A stretch of DNA of 24,756 bases from Nanobdellota archaeon (GCA_043826105.1 JBDRQV010000077.1:1-24756), one strand, 5' to 3'. Positions 3,149 through 21,918 are shown, counted from the stretch's first letter. Made by a program: numbers and translations. The notes: generated from the sequence alone by a model not told the origin.

Positions 3149-4912
3149 TTAATCTAGCACAGCCTTTATCCTTCTTACGCCAGCAGCAACACTCTCTTCT
3201 TTCTTTATCTTAAAGTGGCCCAATTCTTTGGTATTATCCACATGCGGTCCGCCGCATATTTCGATAGACTTATCCCCTATAGAATAAACAAATACCTTAT
3301 CACCATACTTATGCTCAAACACACCCTGTGCTCCTTTTTTCTTTGCTTCTTCAACAGTCATCTCTTTACACTGGACAGGCAATTCTTCTTTAATCCTTTG
3401 GTTCACCCATTCTTCAACTTTATCTAATTCATCCCTCTCCACTTTTCTGTCAAAATTAAAGTCAAATCTCAATCGTTCAGCAGTTATATTAGATCCTTTT
3501 TGAAATATGTCTGGCTTTCCTAAAACCTCTCTCAATGCTTGGTTCAATAGATGAGTCGCAGTATGTAATCTCTTTGTTTCCTCTCCAGAATCTGCCAAAC
3601 CACCTTTAAATTTCTTTTCAGCACCTATTCTGCTCAACTCTTGGTGTTTTTTAAATTCTTCTTCAAAACCCCTGACATCAACAGATATTCCTTTCTCATC
3701 AGCTAATTCTTTAGTTACTTCTATTGGAAAACCAAAACTTTGAAACAGCAAAAATGCCTCTTTTGCAGATATTTTTTTATCAGTAGCCATAACCTCAAAC
3801 TTTCTTAATCCTTTTTCTAATGTGTTTCTGAACTTTTCATCTTCTTTTTTTAACTCATCTAAAATAAACTCCTTATTTTTCTTAAGTTCACTATATTCTT
3901 CACCATGTATCTTAACAACAATCTTAGCAAGTTCAGTCAAAAACTCTTTATCAATGCCGAGTAGATTTCCATGTCTGATACATCTTCTGATAAATCTTCT
4001 TAATATATATCCTTGATCTAGATTAGAAGGAACAATTCCTAGATCATCTCCTAATATAAAAGTAGATGCACGAATGTGATCTGTTATGATCCTGATAGAC
4101 TGTTCTTGTTTCTCATCAGCATTAGTAATTTTAGCCAATTCCTTTATTTTCTCGATTATAGGTTTAAAAGTTTCAATTTCATAAACATTTTTCTTTCCTG
4201 CTAACATAGCTATTGTTCTTTCAACACCCATTCCAGTATCAACATTCTGCTGTTTTAATTTCTCAAACTTTCCATCTGCAACTTTATTATATTCTAAGAA
4301 AACATCATTCCATATCTCAAAATACTTACCGCAACCACATCCAGGAATGCATCCATCAGAGCATTTTTCAATTCCAGTATCGATAAACATTTCAGTACAA
4401 GGTCCGCATGGTCCGGTTGTACCGGCAGGACCCCACCAATTATCTTCTTTTGGTAAAAAATAAATTCGTTCTTCAGGAATACCCAATGATCTCCAGATAG
4501 AGGCAGACTCATCATCTTTAGGGGCATCATGATCCCCTTCAAATACAGTAACAGATAACTTATCAGAATCAAACCCTAAAACCTTTGTCAAAAATTCAAA
4601 ACTCCACTCGATAGCTTCTTTTTTAAAATAATCTCCTAGTGACCAATTTCCAAGCATCTCAAAAAAAGTTAAGTGGGATGGATCTCCAACATTATCAATA
4701 TCCACAGTCCTTATACATTTTTGGACATCAGCCAATCTTTTTCCCTGCGGATGTGGCTGGCCCATCAAAAACGGAACTAATGGGTGCATACCTGCTGTAG
4801 TGAACAATACAGTCGGATCATGCTCAGGTATAAGTGATGCAGATGGTATTATAGCATGCTGTTTCTTTTTAAAAAATTCAAGATACTTTCTTTTAAGTTC
4901 TTTTGAGTCCAT
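3149..4912 (-). CDS. alaS: Alanine--tRNA ligase, short form lacking the C-Ala domain
   Basis: LFTTAGMHPL, QKCIR, TFFEMLGNWSLGDYFK, GPCGPCTE, DTGMGVER, DHIRA, GYILRR; editing motifs HTATH and CGGPH; ends at GVRRIKAV. Confidence 0.97.
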   Translation of the reverse strand: MDSKELKRKYLEFFKKKQHAIIPSASLIPEHDPTVLFTTAGMHPLVPFLMGQPHPQGKRLADVQKCIRTVDIDNVGDPSHLTFFEMLGNWSLGDYFKKEAIEWSFEFLTKVLGFDSDKLSVTVFEGDHDAPKDDESASIWRSLGIPEERIYFLPKEDNWWGPAGTTGPCGPCTEMFIDTGIEKCSDGCIPGCGCGKYFEIWNDVFLEYNKVADGKFEKLKQQNVDTGMGVERTIAMLAGKKNVYEIETFKPIIEKIKELAKITNADEKQEQSIRIITDHIRASTFILGDDLGIVPSNLDQGYILRRFIRRCIRHGNLLGIDKEFLTELAKIVVKIHGEEYSELKKNKEFILDELKKEDEKFRNTLEKGLRKFEVMATDKKISAKEAFLLFQSFGFPIEVTKELADEKGISVDVRGFEEEFKKHQELSRIGAEKKFKGGLADSGEETKRLHTATHLLNQALREVLGKPDIFQKGSNITAERLRFDFNFDRKVERDELDKVEEWVNQRIKEELPVQCKEMTVEEAKKKGAQGVFEHKYGDKVFVYSIGDKSIEICGGPHVDNTKELGHFKIKKEESVAAGVRRIKAVLD

Positions 4913-8244: not shown

Positions 8245-9480
8245 TTATATAAAGTTAGTCAACTTTTGTTGTACTCTTAGATTTTTGAGTAAGATGCTTT
8301 CTTTTAATAAATTTTCTACATTATAGTTAAATTTCTTTCTGACTAACTCTCTGACATACTTCAACATAAGGTCTTTTGAGCCAAATTCTAATGGCCGAGT
8401 ATTCATGGTTTTTCTTACAGCTTCCCTTACAACCCATACTCCTAATGGAACAGCATATTCTCCAGTAATAAATCGTAACACCAGTACAGCAGCTTGTCTT
8501 TTCATATCATGCAATCTCTCGATGATCGGCAGCCTGGAAGCATAATAACCTCCCCCACAATTAGATGCATAGGTCTTTCTTCCATCATATCCTTCATAAT
8601 CAGTCATATATTTATAATCGCTACTGACATTCCATTCAGCTTTAGGGGCATATGTCTCAAACAATTCATAAGACCAAACATCAGGCATTAACAGCACAAT
8701 AAAATAATTTCCAAGATAATTTCCAAAATAAACCTTATAGTCAGAAGAAGGATAATCCTTGATCTTTTTATTGAGGTCTTTAGCTATCATATCATCAGTA
8801 GCAGTTATACTCCATCTGGTCGGAACCAGTTTTCTGTCTTTTTTCATCCCGATTGTTCCGACACTTAATATCTTAGTCAAGAAATTCTCAGAAAATCCAT
8901 GATTATATAGGTAATTTATCGCATCATTTGCTTTTAGGTCAGAATCTGAAAAAACTTTCTCAACTTTATATTCTATCTTTGGATTAGAGGTTACATTGAC
9001 TTGCTTTAATCTGGCATTTGGGCCAGTAGGTGCAAGATAACTGTCAGTATTCAACTTAAAATATGGCCTATCTTCTAGACTGATCTCAACATCAACAGGT
9101 TTAGAGGCTAAACCGACCTCTTGAGCCACTTCTAGCATCTTACTTGTTTGCCTTACATTCATCTTAAACCTGGAATTTATCAATGCAGACCTATAATCTA
9201 TTATTTGCGGGATTTGAAATTCTTTAGCAGCCCAATAATTAGGTGCATCATAAAGCCATGCATCTTCTCTTTGTTCAGGAGGGCTTAATATGCCTACATT
9301 AAGGTTTGGATAGGAGTTATGCCCTACAAAAGGGGCAGGAGAGCTCCCAGAGAAATTATCGCTTGGAAGACTATTTTTGACTCTGATGCCAGCATTTGCT
9401 TTGGCAGTTATAGGGCAGAAAGTCCTTCCACAATTCTTCATAGGATTAGATCCTTTACACTTAAGACAAGGAATGTTCAT
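8245..9480 (-). CDS. nreA: Nre family archaeal DNA repair protein (DUF650/DUF651) with C-terminal PIP box
   Basis: N-terminal CxxC...CG...CP Zn site, PFVGHNSYP, LVPTRWSITATD, GGYYASRL, PLGVWVVRE, terminal QQKLTNFI. ATG 9480 preferred over 9519. Confidence 0.9.
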   Translation of the reverse strand: MNIPCLKCKGSNPMKNCGRTFCPITAKANAGIRVKNSLPSDNFSGSSPAPFVGHNSYPNLNVGILSPPEQREDAWLYDAPNYWAAKEFQIPQIIDYRSALINSRFKMNVRQTSKMLEVAQEVGLASKPVDVEISLEDRPYFKLNTDSYLAPTGPNARLKQVNVTSNPKIEYKVEKVFSDSDLKANDAINYLYNHGFSENFLTKILSVGTIGMKKDRKLVPTRWSITATDDMIAKDLNKKIKDYPSSDYKVYFGNYLGNYFIVLLMPDVWSYELFETYAPKAEWNVSSDYKYMTDYEGYDGRKTYASNCGGGYYASRLPIIERLHDMKRQAAVLVLRFITGEYAVPLGVWVVREAVRKTMNTRPLEFGSKDLMLKYVRELVRKKFNYNVENLLKESILLKNLRVQQKLTNFI

Positions 9481-10713: not shown

Positions 10714-11016
10714 ATGAGACAAGAGAATAGTGGAAGTGGAAACCGTGGAGGTTCCAACAGAAGGTATGGTGGCGGAGGATTTAATAGAGGAGGCAGCCGT
10801 GAAGGTGGCTTTGATAGAGGAGGCAGCCGTGAAGGTGGCTTTAATAGAGGAGGATTTAATAGGGGCGGATTTAACCAAGGTCCAAGAGAGATGCATAAAG
10901 CTATTTGTGCAGATTGCAATCAAGAATGCGAAGTTCCTTTTAAACCAACAGAAGGCAAACCAGTATATTGCAGAGATTGTTTTCAGAAACACAAACCAAA
11001 AAGATTTAATGATTAA
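10714..11016 (+). CDS. CxxC-x17-CxxC Zn-ribbon protein with N-terminal RGG-rich tail (putative nucleic-acid binding)
   Basis: REMHKAICADC-17aa-CRDCF signature; GGFNRGG repeats. Confidence 0.9.
   Translation: MRQENSGSGNRGGSNRRYGGGGFNRGGSREGGFDRGGSREGGFNRGGFNRGGFNQGPREMHKAICADCNQECEVPFKPTEGKPVYCRDCFQKHKPKRFND
10781..10875 (+). repeat. Coding tandem repeats: 30-nt unit x2 followed by 15-nt units, encoding (GGF[N/D]RGGSRE)2(GGFNR)2GGFNQ
   Basis: TTAATAGAGGAGGCAGCCGTGAAGGTGGCT (10781-10810) and TTGATAGAGGAGGCAGCCGTGAAGGTGGCT (10811-10840) differ by 1 nt. Confidence 0.9.
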
Positions 11017-17828: not shown

Positions 17829-18482
17829 TCAGAAATCCTCTAATCTTTTCTGATTTTTCATATTCTCATATTTTTTATAAGATGACCAGGAATGCCTGAA
17901 TATCTCGGGATATTTTTCCCAATTTTCCTTAAGAAATCTTTGTGTTATCTCATTAGAAGGATACCCCGGTCCACAATTGCCATATTTATTCTGGATCTTC
18001 TCTATCTCTCTGTCCCTGACTACTTTCGCAAGGATGGAAGCAGCCCCAACATATACTCTTTCCAGGTCAGCTTTATGCATGCATTCCAACTCAACCTTCT
18101 TGTTTTTCAATAGGTTCATCAAGTAATCTGAATAAGCTTTGCAATTATTAGAGGGACTGTCTACAGTGACCATATCAGGCTTTAGCTTGTTTATTATCTC
18201 AGCTGATTTGTGGGCTTCTAACCAATTCAGGTTCAGCTCTTCTGACTCAAGAGCCTTATCTATCTCAGCAGGTTCAGTTATGATTATCTCAAATGCTTTG
18301 ACAATTTTCTTGATCTTATCAAACATATATTCTCTTTTTTCTTTGCTAAGCAGTTTAGAATCCGTCACACCCATAGCTTCTAATTTAGGCAGGTCTTTCT
18401 TATCGATCAATATGCCTGCCATTACCATGGGACCTATCACAGGGCCTCTTCCAGCTTCATCAATACCGCATATCAATGTCAT
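17829..18482 (-). CDS. rnhB: Ribonuclease HII (archaeal type) with C-terminal PIP box
   Basis: GIDEAGRGPVIGPMV, DSK, VDS, HKAD, AASILAKV, GPGYPS; terminal QKRLEDF. Confidence 0.96.
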   Translation of the reverse strand: MTLICGIDEAGRGPVIGPMVMAGILIDKKDLPKLEAMGVTDSKLLSKEKREYMFDKIKKIVKAFEIIITEPAEIDKALESEELNLNWLEAHKSAEIINKLKPDMVTVDSPSNNCKAYSDYLMNLLKNKKVELECMHKADLERVYVGAASILAKVVRDREIEKIQNKYGNCGPGYPSNEITQRFLKENWEKYPEIFRHSWSSYKKYENMKNQKRLEDF

Positions 18483-19456: not shown

Positions 19457-20050
19457 CTAAAACTCATCCAATCTTATATCCTTCCTAAATTTTTCTTTCT
19501 CGACCTTTAAGCTGCCCCAGTTATGAAACTTTTTAGGGATATTCTTTAAGAAATACTTCTTATTCTTCCTTTCTTTGATAAACTGTGAATCATAATAGCC
19601 TTCCCAGACAGAATCTTCATCAAATTCTGTCAGATCAGACAATATTGAGTTTTCAGGCATTATCTTCTCAAATTCAGGGAGCAGCTCATCAATTTTCTTA
19701 TCATAAATAACCAGATCAGTTGTCTTAGATATGACAAACGTTCCTCTTTTAGATTCGACCATTATGGTAAACATCGGAAACCTAGATAAAAACCATCTAG
19801 CTACCAGATCTTCAACAAAATGTTCAGGATCAATTGAGCAGTAAACAATAGAGTGCTTGCTTATCTTCATACGGCAGAATGCTCTTGACCTTTGGTAACA
19901 TCCAGCTACCTGCCTGTTCCAGTTATACACCCTTCTGGCTTCAGGTGTAGCTAAATTCTCGACAAAAACAACATCCTGCTTTCTGACTATATCATAAACT
20001 TTCTTGTCAAAATTCTTATGCCGGTTTGCCAAATTAAATTCTTTATGCAT
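19457..20050 (-). CDS. DUF4130 / TIGR03915-type putative DNA metabolism protein
   Basis: AFCRM...IDPEH...WFLSRFP and WEGYYDSQFIKERKN...IPKKF match the DUF4130 pattern; 8-nt overlap with the upstream rSAM. Confidence 0.8.
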   Translation of the reverse strand: MHKEFNLANRHKNFDKKVYDIVRKQDVVFVENLATPEARRVYNWNRQVAGCYQRSRAFCRMKISKHSIVYCSIDPEHFVEDLVARWFLSRFPMFTIMVESKRGTFVISKTTDLVIYDKKIDELLPEFEKIMPENSILSDLTEFDEDSVWEGYYDSQFIKERKNKKYFLKNIPKKFHNWGSLKVEKEKFRKDIRLDEF

Positions 20051-21167
20051 ATTCCATCAGCATTTTCTGTCTTTTTCCATCTAGTCTTATAAATGGCAAA
20101 GCCCTCTTAAGGACTATCCCCATATTTTTCAATTGATCCTTCTTGATAATCTTAATACTATTTTTCTGCATATCTAATATGCGATGCGCAGAAGTAGGAC
20201 CGATTCCAGGAACCCTTATCAATTCATTCCATGATGCTTCATTCAGATCAACACCACCATCAAAAAAATTTCGGGCCAAAGCAATTTTTGGGTCGATATT
20301 AGGGAGCATTTCATCTTCCATTATCTCTTTAAACTCTTTTAATGGGATATGGTACTTGCGTAGCATAAAATCAATATTATACAGATGATGTTCTCTCAAT
20401 AGGCCAATCTTTCGCTTACTTTCAAAAGGAGTCTTTGGAACAGGTACAAAAGCAGAATAATATCCTCTTTTAAGATTTATATTTTTATACTCCCAATCGA
20501 TCATCTTTAATATTTCCATATCAGTTTCGTCAGAACCTCCGACCACAAGTTGAGTTGTCTGGCCAGAGTGCAGATTCATCCTTTTTAACCATGCCTGTCT
20601 GCGTAATATGTCTATCTTATAATCTTTTACAGACGAAATCTCTGACATCCTTGATTTATTCGGAGCTTCCAGATTTATAGACATCCTGTCTGCAAACTCT
20701 GATGACTGCTTTATCAGCTCATAAGATGTACCCGGCAACACCTTAAAATGGATATACCCCTGAAATTTATACTTATTACGGATTAGATTACAGGCTTCAA
20801 TCATCCTCTCAGTAGTTGTATCGGGATTATTCTCAACTCCCGAACTTATAAACAATCCTTCTACATAATTTCTAACATAAAGGTTCATAAACACTTTGGC
20901 AAATTCTTCAGGCTCAAACCTCGTCGGTTTTTTATTACATCCTGCAGAATTAGCACAATATTTACAATCAAATGAACATGCATTAGAATATAATGTCTTC
21001 CATAAAGAGATGCATTGGCCATCCTCTGTAAACGAATGACAGATCCCACAACCAGCAGCATTACCTATCCTATCTGTGCCGCTAACTTTCCTGTTAGACG
21101 CAGAACTAGCGCAAGTGTCCCATTTAGCAGATTCACCTAAGATTTTAACTTTCTCTAACGGATCCAT
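20043..21167 (-). CDS. Putative DNA modification/repair radical SAM protein with helix-hairpin-helix (TIGR03916-type)
   Basis: AKWDTCASS, GICHSFTEDGQCISL, CSFDCKYC, YVEGLFISS, YIHFK, SINLE, QTTQLVVG, YYSAFVP, REHHLY, DPK, HhH LIRVPGIG. Confidence 0.92.
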   Translation of the reverse strand: MDPLEKVKILGESAKWDTCASSASNRKVSGTDRIGNAAGCGICHSFTEDGQCISLWKTLYSNACSFDCKYCANSAGCNKKPTRFEPEEFAKVFMNLYVRNYVEGLFISSGVENNPDTTTERMIEACNLIRNKYKFQGYIHFKVLPGTSYELIKQSSEFADRMSINLEAPNKSRMSEISSVKDYKIDILRRQAWLKRMNLHSGQTTQLVVGGSDETDMEILKMIDWEYKNINLKRGYYSAFVPVPKTPFESKRKIGLLREHHLYNIDFMLRKYHIPLKEFKEIMEDEMLPNIDPKIALARNFFDGGVDLNEASWNELIRVPGIGPTSAHRILDMQKNSIKIIKKDQLKNMGIVLKRALPFIRLDGKRQKMLMEYA

Positions 21168-21918
21168 TTTTTAATGTCTGTTTTTTTAATTCACTATAAG
21201 CATAATCAGCGATTTTCTTAAGATTAAACACATCATCCTCATTATATTCCACTAATAGGTTTAAATAATAATCATCTCCAGAACCTTTGAACATCTTCCA
21301 TAACAACAAAGGATCACCATTGTATATCTTCTCAATAATCTTATTCCTTTCTATACCTAATCTCTTTTCAATCATCTTTAATCCGCCTTTCAATCCGATC
21401 CTGGAACAAGCAACCCTTAGGTCAAAGTTAGGGACATTAGGCAACACATCAGGATATCTTTTTTTAATAAATGGGACATCAAAAGTTGCGCCATTAAAAG
21501 TGATGATCAGGTTATATCTGCTCAATTCCTCTCTTAACGATCCATAATCCATATTGATGCTCTTTATCATCGTCTTAGTATTTAACCCATCAAACAATCC
21601 GATCAATGTGATATCATCATAACTGCCAACTCCAGTTGTTTCAATATCTAAGAATACTGCCTGATCTTTAAAAAAATCATAGATCCTCCATGTCTCAGAT
21701 TGTGGTAATCTTTCTAAGAAATATCTGCTATTAAAACTATAGAGTGCACTTTGTGCATCTGCTAATTGTCTGTCATAATACTTTTTTCTATGATCTGAAA
21801 TGCCTCTTATCTTCTTAGCCTTTAAGAAATCATCCCAATTGGTTATGCCCTGGCTCCATATACTTTGTTCTGTTCTATATTTTACCCTTTTCAAAAAAAT
21901 GAAGCTTTGTTCGATCAT
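21145..21918 (-). CDS. RNase H-like DEDD 3'-5' exonuclease (YprB/RNase_H_2 family)
   Basis: FLDIETTG, FNGATFDVP, FDL, GGLKMIE, YNEDDV; 23-nt overlap with the rSAM start. Confidence 0.88.
   Translation of the reverse strand: MIEQSFIFLKRVKYRTEQSIWSQGITNWDDFLKAKKIRGISDHRKKYYDRQLADAQSALYSFNSRYFLERLPQSETWRIYDFFKDQAVFLDIETTGVGSYDDITLIGLFDGLNTKTMIKSINMDYGSLREELSRYNLIITFNGATFDVPFIKKRYPDVLPNVPNFDLRVACSRIGLKGGLKMIEKRLGIERNKIIEKIYNGDPLLLWKMFKGSGDDYYLNLLVEYNEDDVFNLKKIADYAYSELKKQTLKNGSVRES

Follow-up and report, generated by a model that had tools for sequence, protein, structure and literature searches.

The window examined here is a stretch of 24,756 nucleotides from a Nanobdellota archaeon (GCA_043826105.1, JBDRQV010000077.1:1-24756), analysed at its full length and corresponding to contig C77 of the genome. 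At its focus stand two neighbouring genes on the minus strand, which encode a radical S-adenosylmethionine (SAM) protein with a C-terminal helix-hairpin-helix (HhH) domain and a DUF4130 protein. An initial annotation of the window had ascribed to both proteins a C-terminus that resembles a PCNA-interacting protein (PIP) box, and had proposed that the pair is recruited to the sliding clamp PCNA. The genome has a GC content of 35% and is of the Woesearchaeota type (DPANN), with the nearest named homologues coming from 'Candidatus Woesearchaeota' and 'Nanoarchaeota'.

The gene pair and its C-termini

Together with the gene of an RNase H-like exonuclease, the two genes form a group of three overlapping genes (Table 1). 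The radical SAM protein scores 356.7 bits against the family model TIGR03916 (cut-off 343.5) and contains both a CxxxCxxC motif and a C-terminal HhH domain; C64, C68 and C71 are invariant across alignments A1 and A3. Its DUF4130 neighbour passes the Pfam threshold of PF13566 (69.1 bits vs 27), while missing the cut-off of TIGR03915 (65.1 bits vs 112.25), of which it matches profile positions 96-236 alone; it is a shortened archaeal version. Its start codon and the stop codon of the radical SAM gene share an 8-nt overlap (ATGCATAA), which suggests that the translation of both genes is coupled. The exonuclease gene is the first of the apparent operon and overlaps the radical SAM start by 23 nt; the C-terminus of its product is not PIP-like. 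As a general part of the module, however, the exonuclease was rejected, since its linkage to the radical SAM gene is confined to the two closest relatives (L006 and L008).

Translation bears out the four C-termini on which the initial annotation was built: the radical SAM protein ends in ...GKRQKMLMEYA and thus in QKMLMEYA, the DUF4130 protein in ...RKDIRLDEF with DIRLDEF as its last residues, and NreA and RNase HII, which serve as internal positive controls, in QQKLTNFI and QKRLEDF. The family assignments of all four proteins likewise hold in NCBIfam and Pfam, with matches of NreA to Nre_N and Nre_C and of RNase HII to TIGR00729. PCNA itself is encoded by one gene of this genome (contig C22, 248 aa).

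Table 1. Genes, domains and C-terminal motifs of the window
Feature	Position	Strand	Basis
RNase H-like exonuclease, PF13482 (RNase_H_2)	21145-21918	-	Pfam, E 1e-28
Radical SAM/HhH protein, TIGR03916, 374 aa	20043-21167	-	NCBIfam; Pfam Radical_SAM, HHH_3
CxxxCxxC [4Fe-4S]/SAM cluster motif (C64, C68, C71)	20955-20978	-	Translation
HhH DNA-binding domain, residues 305-348	20124-20255	-	Pfam HHH_3, E 9e-9
Putative PIP box QKMLMEY (Q367, L370, Y373), then A374	20049-20069	-	Translation; stop 20043-20045
DUF4130 partner, 197 aa, short archaeal type	19457-20050	-	Pfam PF13566, E 5.5e-19
PIP-like tail DIRLDEF, no Q (L194, F197)	19460-19480	-	Translation; stop 19457-19459
RNase HII PIP box QKRLEDF, then stop (internal positive control)	17832-17852	-	Translation
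NreA PIP box QQKLTNFI, then stop (internal positive control)	8248-8271	-	Translation

The level at which such ends arise by chance was estimated on a crude set of 1296 open reading frames (ORFs) from the whole genome, with random internal windows as the expectation. The strict pattern Qxx[LIMV]xx[FYW], located no more than three residues from the end, occurs in 12 of these ORFs vs 3.0 ± 1.8 expected, an approximately fourfold enrichment, and its carriers include PolB, RNase HII and NreA. The radical SAM tail stands out even as a single sequence. Compared with the form Q-x-x-[LIM]-x-x-[FY]-[FY], it has the Q, the L and the first aromatic residue; the second is absent and its place taken by A374, at a variable position. 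RNase HII and PolB of this genome likewise have one aromatic residue only. The motif occupies the extreme C-terminus, the terminal location that is expected of PIP boxes, and may or may not be flexible, its local confidence values (pLDDT) in an AlphaFold 2 (AF2) model being fairly high.

Two proteins without a Pfam match also end in the strict pattern and are candidates for further PCNA clients of this genome. One of them, of 128 aa, is encoded beside PolB (G000:C70:3447-3833) and ends in QQLIERYLLG, and the other, of 420 aa, ends in KQLSLSNF (G000:C232:8128-9390).

The radical SAM tail in Archaea and Bacteria

Within the phylum, 401 genomes were sampled and 53 have TIGR03916 homologues, approximately 44 of these being strong matches; no match was obtained in four archaeal control genomes. 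The initial annotation had named a lack of conservation among archaeal homologues as an outcome that would speak against its proposal, yet the motif turned out to be conserved. In 107 of 120 database homologues (53-85% identity), which include proteins named from Altiarchaeota, Aenigmatarchaeota and Micrarchaeota, the strict pattern lies no more than four residues from the end, and pooling with 28 genomic loci gives 133 of 148 archaeal homologues with the PIP pattern. When the 138 distinct archaeal tails are anchored on the conserved PF[ILV] that closes the domain, position 4 after the anchor is G in 133/138, position 7 is Q in 137/138 (Q367 of the window protein, which is invariant in alignment A3), position 10 is L, I, M or V in 138/138, and position 13 is F, Y or W in 128/135. 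The remaining tail positions have an entropy of 2.3-3.6 bits, and the chain ends 0-2 residues past the aromatic residue in 121/138 tails. A near-invariant triad with freely varying spacer positions at a terminal location is what characterises short linear docking motifs, here of the form G-x-x-Q-x-x-[LIMV]-x-x-[FYW] immediately behind the HhH domain. For comparison, the pattern is kept in 25/29 RNase HII proteins of the phylum, whose consensus KQKKLGEF is very similar to KRQKxLxEF, the consensus of the radical SAM tails.

In principle, such an end could have arisen by chance or as an artefact of the 8-nt overlap that constrains the last codons, given that the last three radical SAM codons overlap the DUF4130 start and that a single Q-x-x-L-x-x-Y is expected about three times per 1296 ORFs. 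However, the motif is conserved over 148 homologues with identities as low as 53%, the overlap does not extend to its Q and L, and the motif is also present where no downstream gene overlaps. The conservation data and the loci without an overlapping gene refute an origin of this kind, which we regard as vanishingly improbable.

The archaeal loci fall into two subgroups in this respect. In 11 loci, the window's included, a DUF4130 gene lies immediately downstream of the radical SAM gene. The 19 others (L013-L031) score 240-300 bits on TIGR03916, below the cut-off, with no DUF4130 gene nearby, and PF13566 was not found in four of five genomes examined from this stand-alone subgroup. The PIP pattern is present in both, namely in 10/11 proteins with a DUF4130 neighbour and in 17/18 stand-alone ones. 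Hence, gene overlap is excluded as its cause, and the persistence of the pattern in stand-alone proteins also argues against the tail as a DUF4130-binding element. Regarding the neighbourhood of the stand-alone genes, 'SplB-like' genes that adjoin NreB have been discussed (PMC4929162); no Nre homologue occurs in the 30 loci that were inspected for such an arrangement.

Bacterial TIGR03916 proteins share the orthologous radical SAM/HhH core at 35-40% identity and score above the cut-off. The TIGR03916/DUF4130 (UdgX-linked) gene pair is very widespread; a single search yielded matches to over 7,600 clusters (90% identity). The sample analysed here comprises 88 complete bacterial proteins, 80 of which are from proteobacterial genome loci; all hits of the genome-contig scan, run with a mixed alignment, are closely related to its first (alphaproteobacterial) sequence, and phylum diversity derives from eight records of plasmids or chromids and from one protein search centred on Bacillota. 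Q[LM]xL[FL] is found no more than three residues from the end in 70 of the 88 proteins, and most of the others carry degenerate versions. Among the plasmid- or chromid-borne homologues, the tails read GQLSLF (Chondrinema, Bacteroidota), EQLSLF and SQLSLF (Leisingera and Azospirillum), EQLSLL (Cupriavidus and Agrobacterium) or PQLSLGF (Acinetobacter), while the motif is internal, near the end, in Subdoligranulum (EQLSLF followed by 35 aa) and Gemmatirosa (SQLSLW). Oscillospiraceae-type proteins contain QL[SCT]LF in 91 of 120 cases, always 34 residues before the end. In these homologues (P0293-P0412), the internal QLSLF is followed by a conserved 34-residue extension ending in ...EEAVxCLxxxM. 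The bacterial QLxLF ends, which the initial annotation had put forward, are thus real. By their sequence, the bacterial tails are QL[SD]LF-like pentapeptides and as such putative beta-clamp-binding motifs.

The two motif types hardly mix: the strict bacterial motif is found in 0/148 archaeal proteins and the PIP pattern in 3/88 bacterial ones. Archaeal and bacterial proteins share the end point of the common domain, and the linker from there to the motif measures about 25 residues in Bacteria (25 in most proteobacteria) vs 3 in Archaea. An unrooted maximum-likelihood tree of 56 sequences separates 34 archaeal from 20 bacterial ones across starred branches (98, 98) and leaves two long rows without a placement. 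This single clean split implies that the motif type changes once on the tree; the exchange may have come with a transfer between the domains, as the initial annotation had proposed. The broad bacterial and patchy archaeal distribution, along with the absence from the archaeal controls, hints at a bacterial origin of the family. TIGR03916 proteins thus appear to carry a C-terminal short linear motif that is matched to the clamp of the host, i.e. a PIP box in Archaea and QLSLF in Bacteria, and the family is probably tethered to the sliding clamp in both domains.

Several features weigh against this assignment of the archaeal tail. The textbook PIP motif QxxhxxAA has two aromatic residues, and the radical SAM tail only one. 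G4 and L10 of the tail align with a G and an L of the proteobacterial linker, and part of the archaeal tail pattern may therefore be structural. In addition, the motif begins only three residues past the folded domain, and in the AF2 model of the radical SAM protein (mean pLDDT 87) the tail has pLDDT values of 74-86 and a short helix at residues 370-373. The modelled helix would agree with the 3-10 turn of a PIP box and also with a helix packed on the enzyme, so that the tail could pack on the enzyme itself. A Foldseek search of the model against the PDB retrieved no solved relative, only generic radical SAM folds (BioB, HydE and LIAS, TM approximately 0.45). One complex prediction of PCNA (alignment A2) with radical SAM residues 340-374, carried out without controls, gave 0.30 vs a mark of 0.32 and was counted neither way.

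Conceivably, the conserved C-terminal residues could thus serve a structural purpose, as an HhH capping helix or as the interface of a heterodimer with DUF4130, and their likeness to a PIP box would be coincidental. The short distance to the domain, the modelled helix and the residues shared with the proteobacterial linker would all suit such a role, as would the large radical SAM-DUF4130 interface that AlphaFold 3 (AF3) predicts for a bacterial pair (10.64898/2026.08.19.745780). On the other hand, the stand-alone archaeal proteins retain the motif without DUF4130; F, Y and W are interchangeable and the spacer residues unconstrained, which is the behaviour of a docking motif and not of a packed helix; and a purely structural role leaves unexplained why a cognate beta-clamp motif sits at the end of the linker in Bacteria. 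A coincidental likeness is accordingly judged improbable, and we consider it likely, from the conservation pattern, that the radical SAM subunit is recruited to the sliding clamp via its PIP box as a predicted PCNA client.

The DUF4130 tail

The situation is different for the second protein, whose tail fits the loose pattern [LIMV]xx[FYW] alone. This pattern is at chance level in the proteome, with 64 of 1296 ORFs observed vs 60.6 ± 7.3 expected, so that the DUF4130 tail is meaningful only via its conservation in homologues. Judged by Q-x-x-[LIM]-x-x-[FY]-[FY], it falls outside the canonical form for want of the Q. At their ends, all 22 aligned archaeal DUF4130 partners have [LI] followed three residues later by [FYW]; at the canonical Q position they usually have N, and the window protein has D. 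A profile search of 1.8 billion cluster representatives extended the comparison to 150 DUF4130 relatives. The PKKF/Y domain end served as an anchor for 103 short archaeal-type representatives, and 95 of them carry [LIMV]xx[FYW] in a tail of about 23 residues, with a second hydrophobic or aromatic residue and basic residues often following the motif. The longer 'PKKYW.W' type, to which the bacterial proteins of Chondrinema and Acinetobacter are similar, mostly ends soon after the domain, with the motif absent.

Three representatives were checked by their gene context and are archaeal: DUF835 is encoded at L190, the genes of PolB, the radical SAM protein and DUF4130 share one strand at L191, and the context of L192 includes an Sm protein, an archaeal SAM synthetase and Kae1-Bud32. 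The radical SAM partners encoded at L191 and L192 end in the PIP pattern. At L191 (442-4843), a high-GC archaeal contig, a gene for a family B DNA polymerase is directly followed, on the same strand, by the radical SAM and DUF4130 genes. The exonuclease part of this polymerase also matches PF13482, the family of the exonuclease that leads the operon in the window.

Of the PIP-like ends that the initial annotation had assigned to both proteins, the one on the radical SAM protein thus proved strongly conserved, whereas the one on DUF4130 lacks the canonical Q and retains L-x-x-F/Y/W. Its conservation marks the DUF4130 tail as a genuine element specific to Archaea, similar to a PIP box variant without the Q but outside the canonical definition. 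Whether it binds PCNA as well is a different matter. An alternative with a probability only slightly short of even is that the radical SAM subunit is the sole clamp client, and that the DUF4130 tail binds the radical SAM protein or DNA, or stabilises the small archaeal domain. In its favour, the loose motif is no more frequent than by chance, and Q stands at the canonical position in just 1 of 150 representatives, its absence from the other 149 being a point against clamp binding of this tail. Furthermore, the bacterial DUF4130 and UdgX-type partners have no beta-clamp motif, which implies that two clamp motifs per module are not the ancestral design. This restriction to one subunit is countered by the fact that the tail is an archaeal-only extension past the PKKF/Y domain end, in which [LI]-x-x-[FYW] is kept in the great majority of archaeal-type representatives, that it co-occurs with PIP-bearing radical SAM partners, and that it is predicted as a coil with low confidence (pLDDT about 56 in the AF2 model). 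As judged from these sequences, the chances that the DUF4130 tail binds PCNA are about even.

Proposed clamp recruitment and related systems

In the mechanism that we propose, the Q/L/aromatic triad of the radical SAM tail would dock to one subunit of the PCNA homotrimer, in its hydrophobic pocket. Docking would keep the enzyme, including its HhH DNA-binding domain and [4Fe-4S]/SAM active site, on DNA loaded with the clamp at replication forks or repair patches, where it may act by radical chemistry on a DNA lesion or base. The co-translated DUF4130 subunit would likely be a nucleic-acid-binding partner. A 2026 preprint reports a predicted radical SAM-DUF4130 heterodimer and nucleic-acid binding (10.64898/2026.08.19.745780). 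In a much less certain step, for which arguments on both sides are roughly balanced, the DUF4130 tail (x-x-x-[LI]-x-x-[FYW], mostly with N or D in place of Q) could occupy a second PCNA subunit. The full extension of this scheme, i.e. a clamp-coupled radical repair common to Bacteria and Archaea in which radical SAM chemistry at the fork reverses or processes replication-blocking lesions, with the archaeal heterodimer sitting on two PCNA subunits, appears rather unlikely at present. If this last scheme were true, the protein would be the first radical SAM enzyme known as a sliding-clamp client, and it would provide a handle on the substrate of a very widespread DNA-damage-inducible gene pair.

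Contextual support for a function at the clamp comes from the PolB-adjacent gene pair of L191 and from the occurrence of the bacterial pair in DNA-damage regulons, as described in a comparative analysis from 2013 (PMC3765255) and a study from 2025 (PMC12392091). In the literature outside subscription journals, no paper was found that ties TIGR03916 or DUF4130 to sliding clamps, and a 2016 review of archaeal PCNA clients does not list the family (PMC4929162). A domain-matched clamp motif points to the workplace of the enzyme, namely clamp-loaded DNA at forks or repair patches. The function of the TIGR03916 enzyme thereby becomes directly testable, with the motif as the first concrete mechanistic handle on a widespread DNA-damage-response enzyme, and the archaeal PCNA interactome would be extended to a radical SAM enzyme.

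The closest parallel is offered by the mismatch endonuclease NucS/EndoMS: its C-terminus bears a functional PIP motif in Archaea and a functional beta-clamp motif in Actinobacteria (PMC6159515). As in TIGR03916, one repair-enzyme family thus combines a PIP motif in Archaea with a beta-clamp motif in Bacteria. In NucS/EndoMS, the motif is needed for activation by the clamp in both domains (PMC6159515; PMC4929162), whereas the clamp link of TIGR03916 is deduced from its tails. The enzymes also differ in kind, NucS being a RecB-like nuclease with a known substrate and TIGR03916 a radical SAM/HhH protein. Moreover, TIGR03916 is very broadly distributed on the bacterial side (Proteobacteria, Bacteroidota, Bacillota and Gemmatimonadota) and patchy on the archaeal side. 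Next to NucS/EndoMS, TIGR03916 would clearly be a second repair enzyme with different clamp motifs in Bacteria and Archaea. A clamp client with domain-matched motifs is a known principle to which a case is added, not a new principle.

Among archaeal PCNA clients, RNase HII and NreA share with the radical SAM tail the pattern Qxx[LIM]xx[FY] at the C-terminal end or one to two residues from it, and the phylum-level conservation of the RNase HII motif is similar to that of the radical SAM motif (25/29 and 133/148, respectively). For both controls, binding to PCNA has been demonstrated experimentally or genetically (PMC3089482, PMC4929162), with structures of archaeal RNase HII-PCNA complexes (PMC3089482) and the reviewed dependence of NreA on its PIP motif (PMC4929162), while for the radical SAM protein it is predicted. 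The radical SAM tail further differs from those of RNase HII and NreA in having almost no linker to the domain.

The bacterial TIGR03916 and TIGR03915/UdgX module shares its gene order with the archaeal pair, in that a gene for a DUF4130-containing partner lies next to the radical SAM gene. In Bacteria, this partner is a longer protein that is in many cases fused to a UdgX-type uracil-DNA-glycosylase domain, whereas the archaeal one is a 200-aa DUF4130 protein with an L-x-x-F tail. The bacterial radical SAM protein ends in QLSLF after its linker of about 25 residues and the archaeal one in a PIP box. In this genome, the gene of the RNase H-like exonuclease is added upstream. A further likeness exists to SplB, a radical SAM enzyme that acts directly on DNA damage, and TIGR03916 has been called 'SplB-like' (PMC3765255). 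In NCBIfam, no SPL family model is matched by the radical SAM protein of the window. Spore photoproduct lyase (SplB) itself is not known to carry a clamp motif.

Two other genes of the window deserve a brief mention. An alanyl-tRNA synthetase gene at 3149-4912 on the minus strand encodes a protein of 587 aa, which is short for the family, the C-terminal domain apparently being missing or encoded elsewhere. On the plus strand, an ORF of 100 aa (10714-11016) combines N-terminal RGG/FNRGG repeats with a zinc-ribbon-like C-terminal end (CxxC...CxxC), and owing to the repeat it is overlapped by two further long ORFs in other frames.

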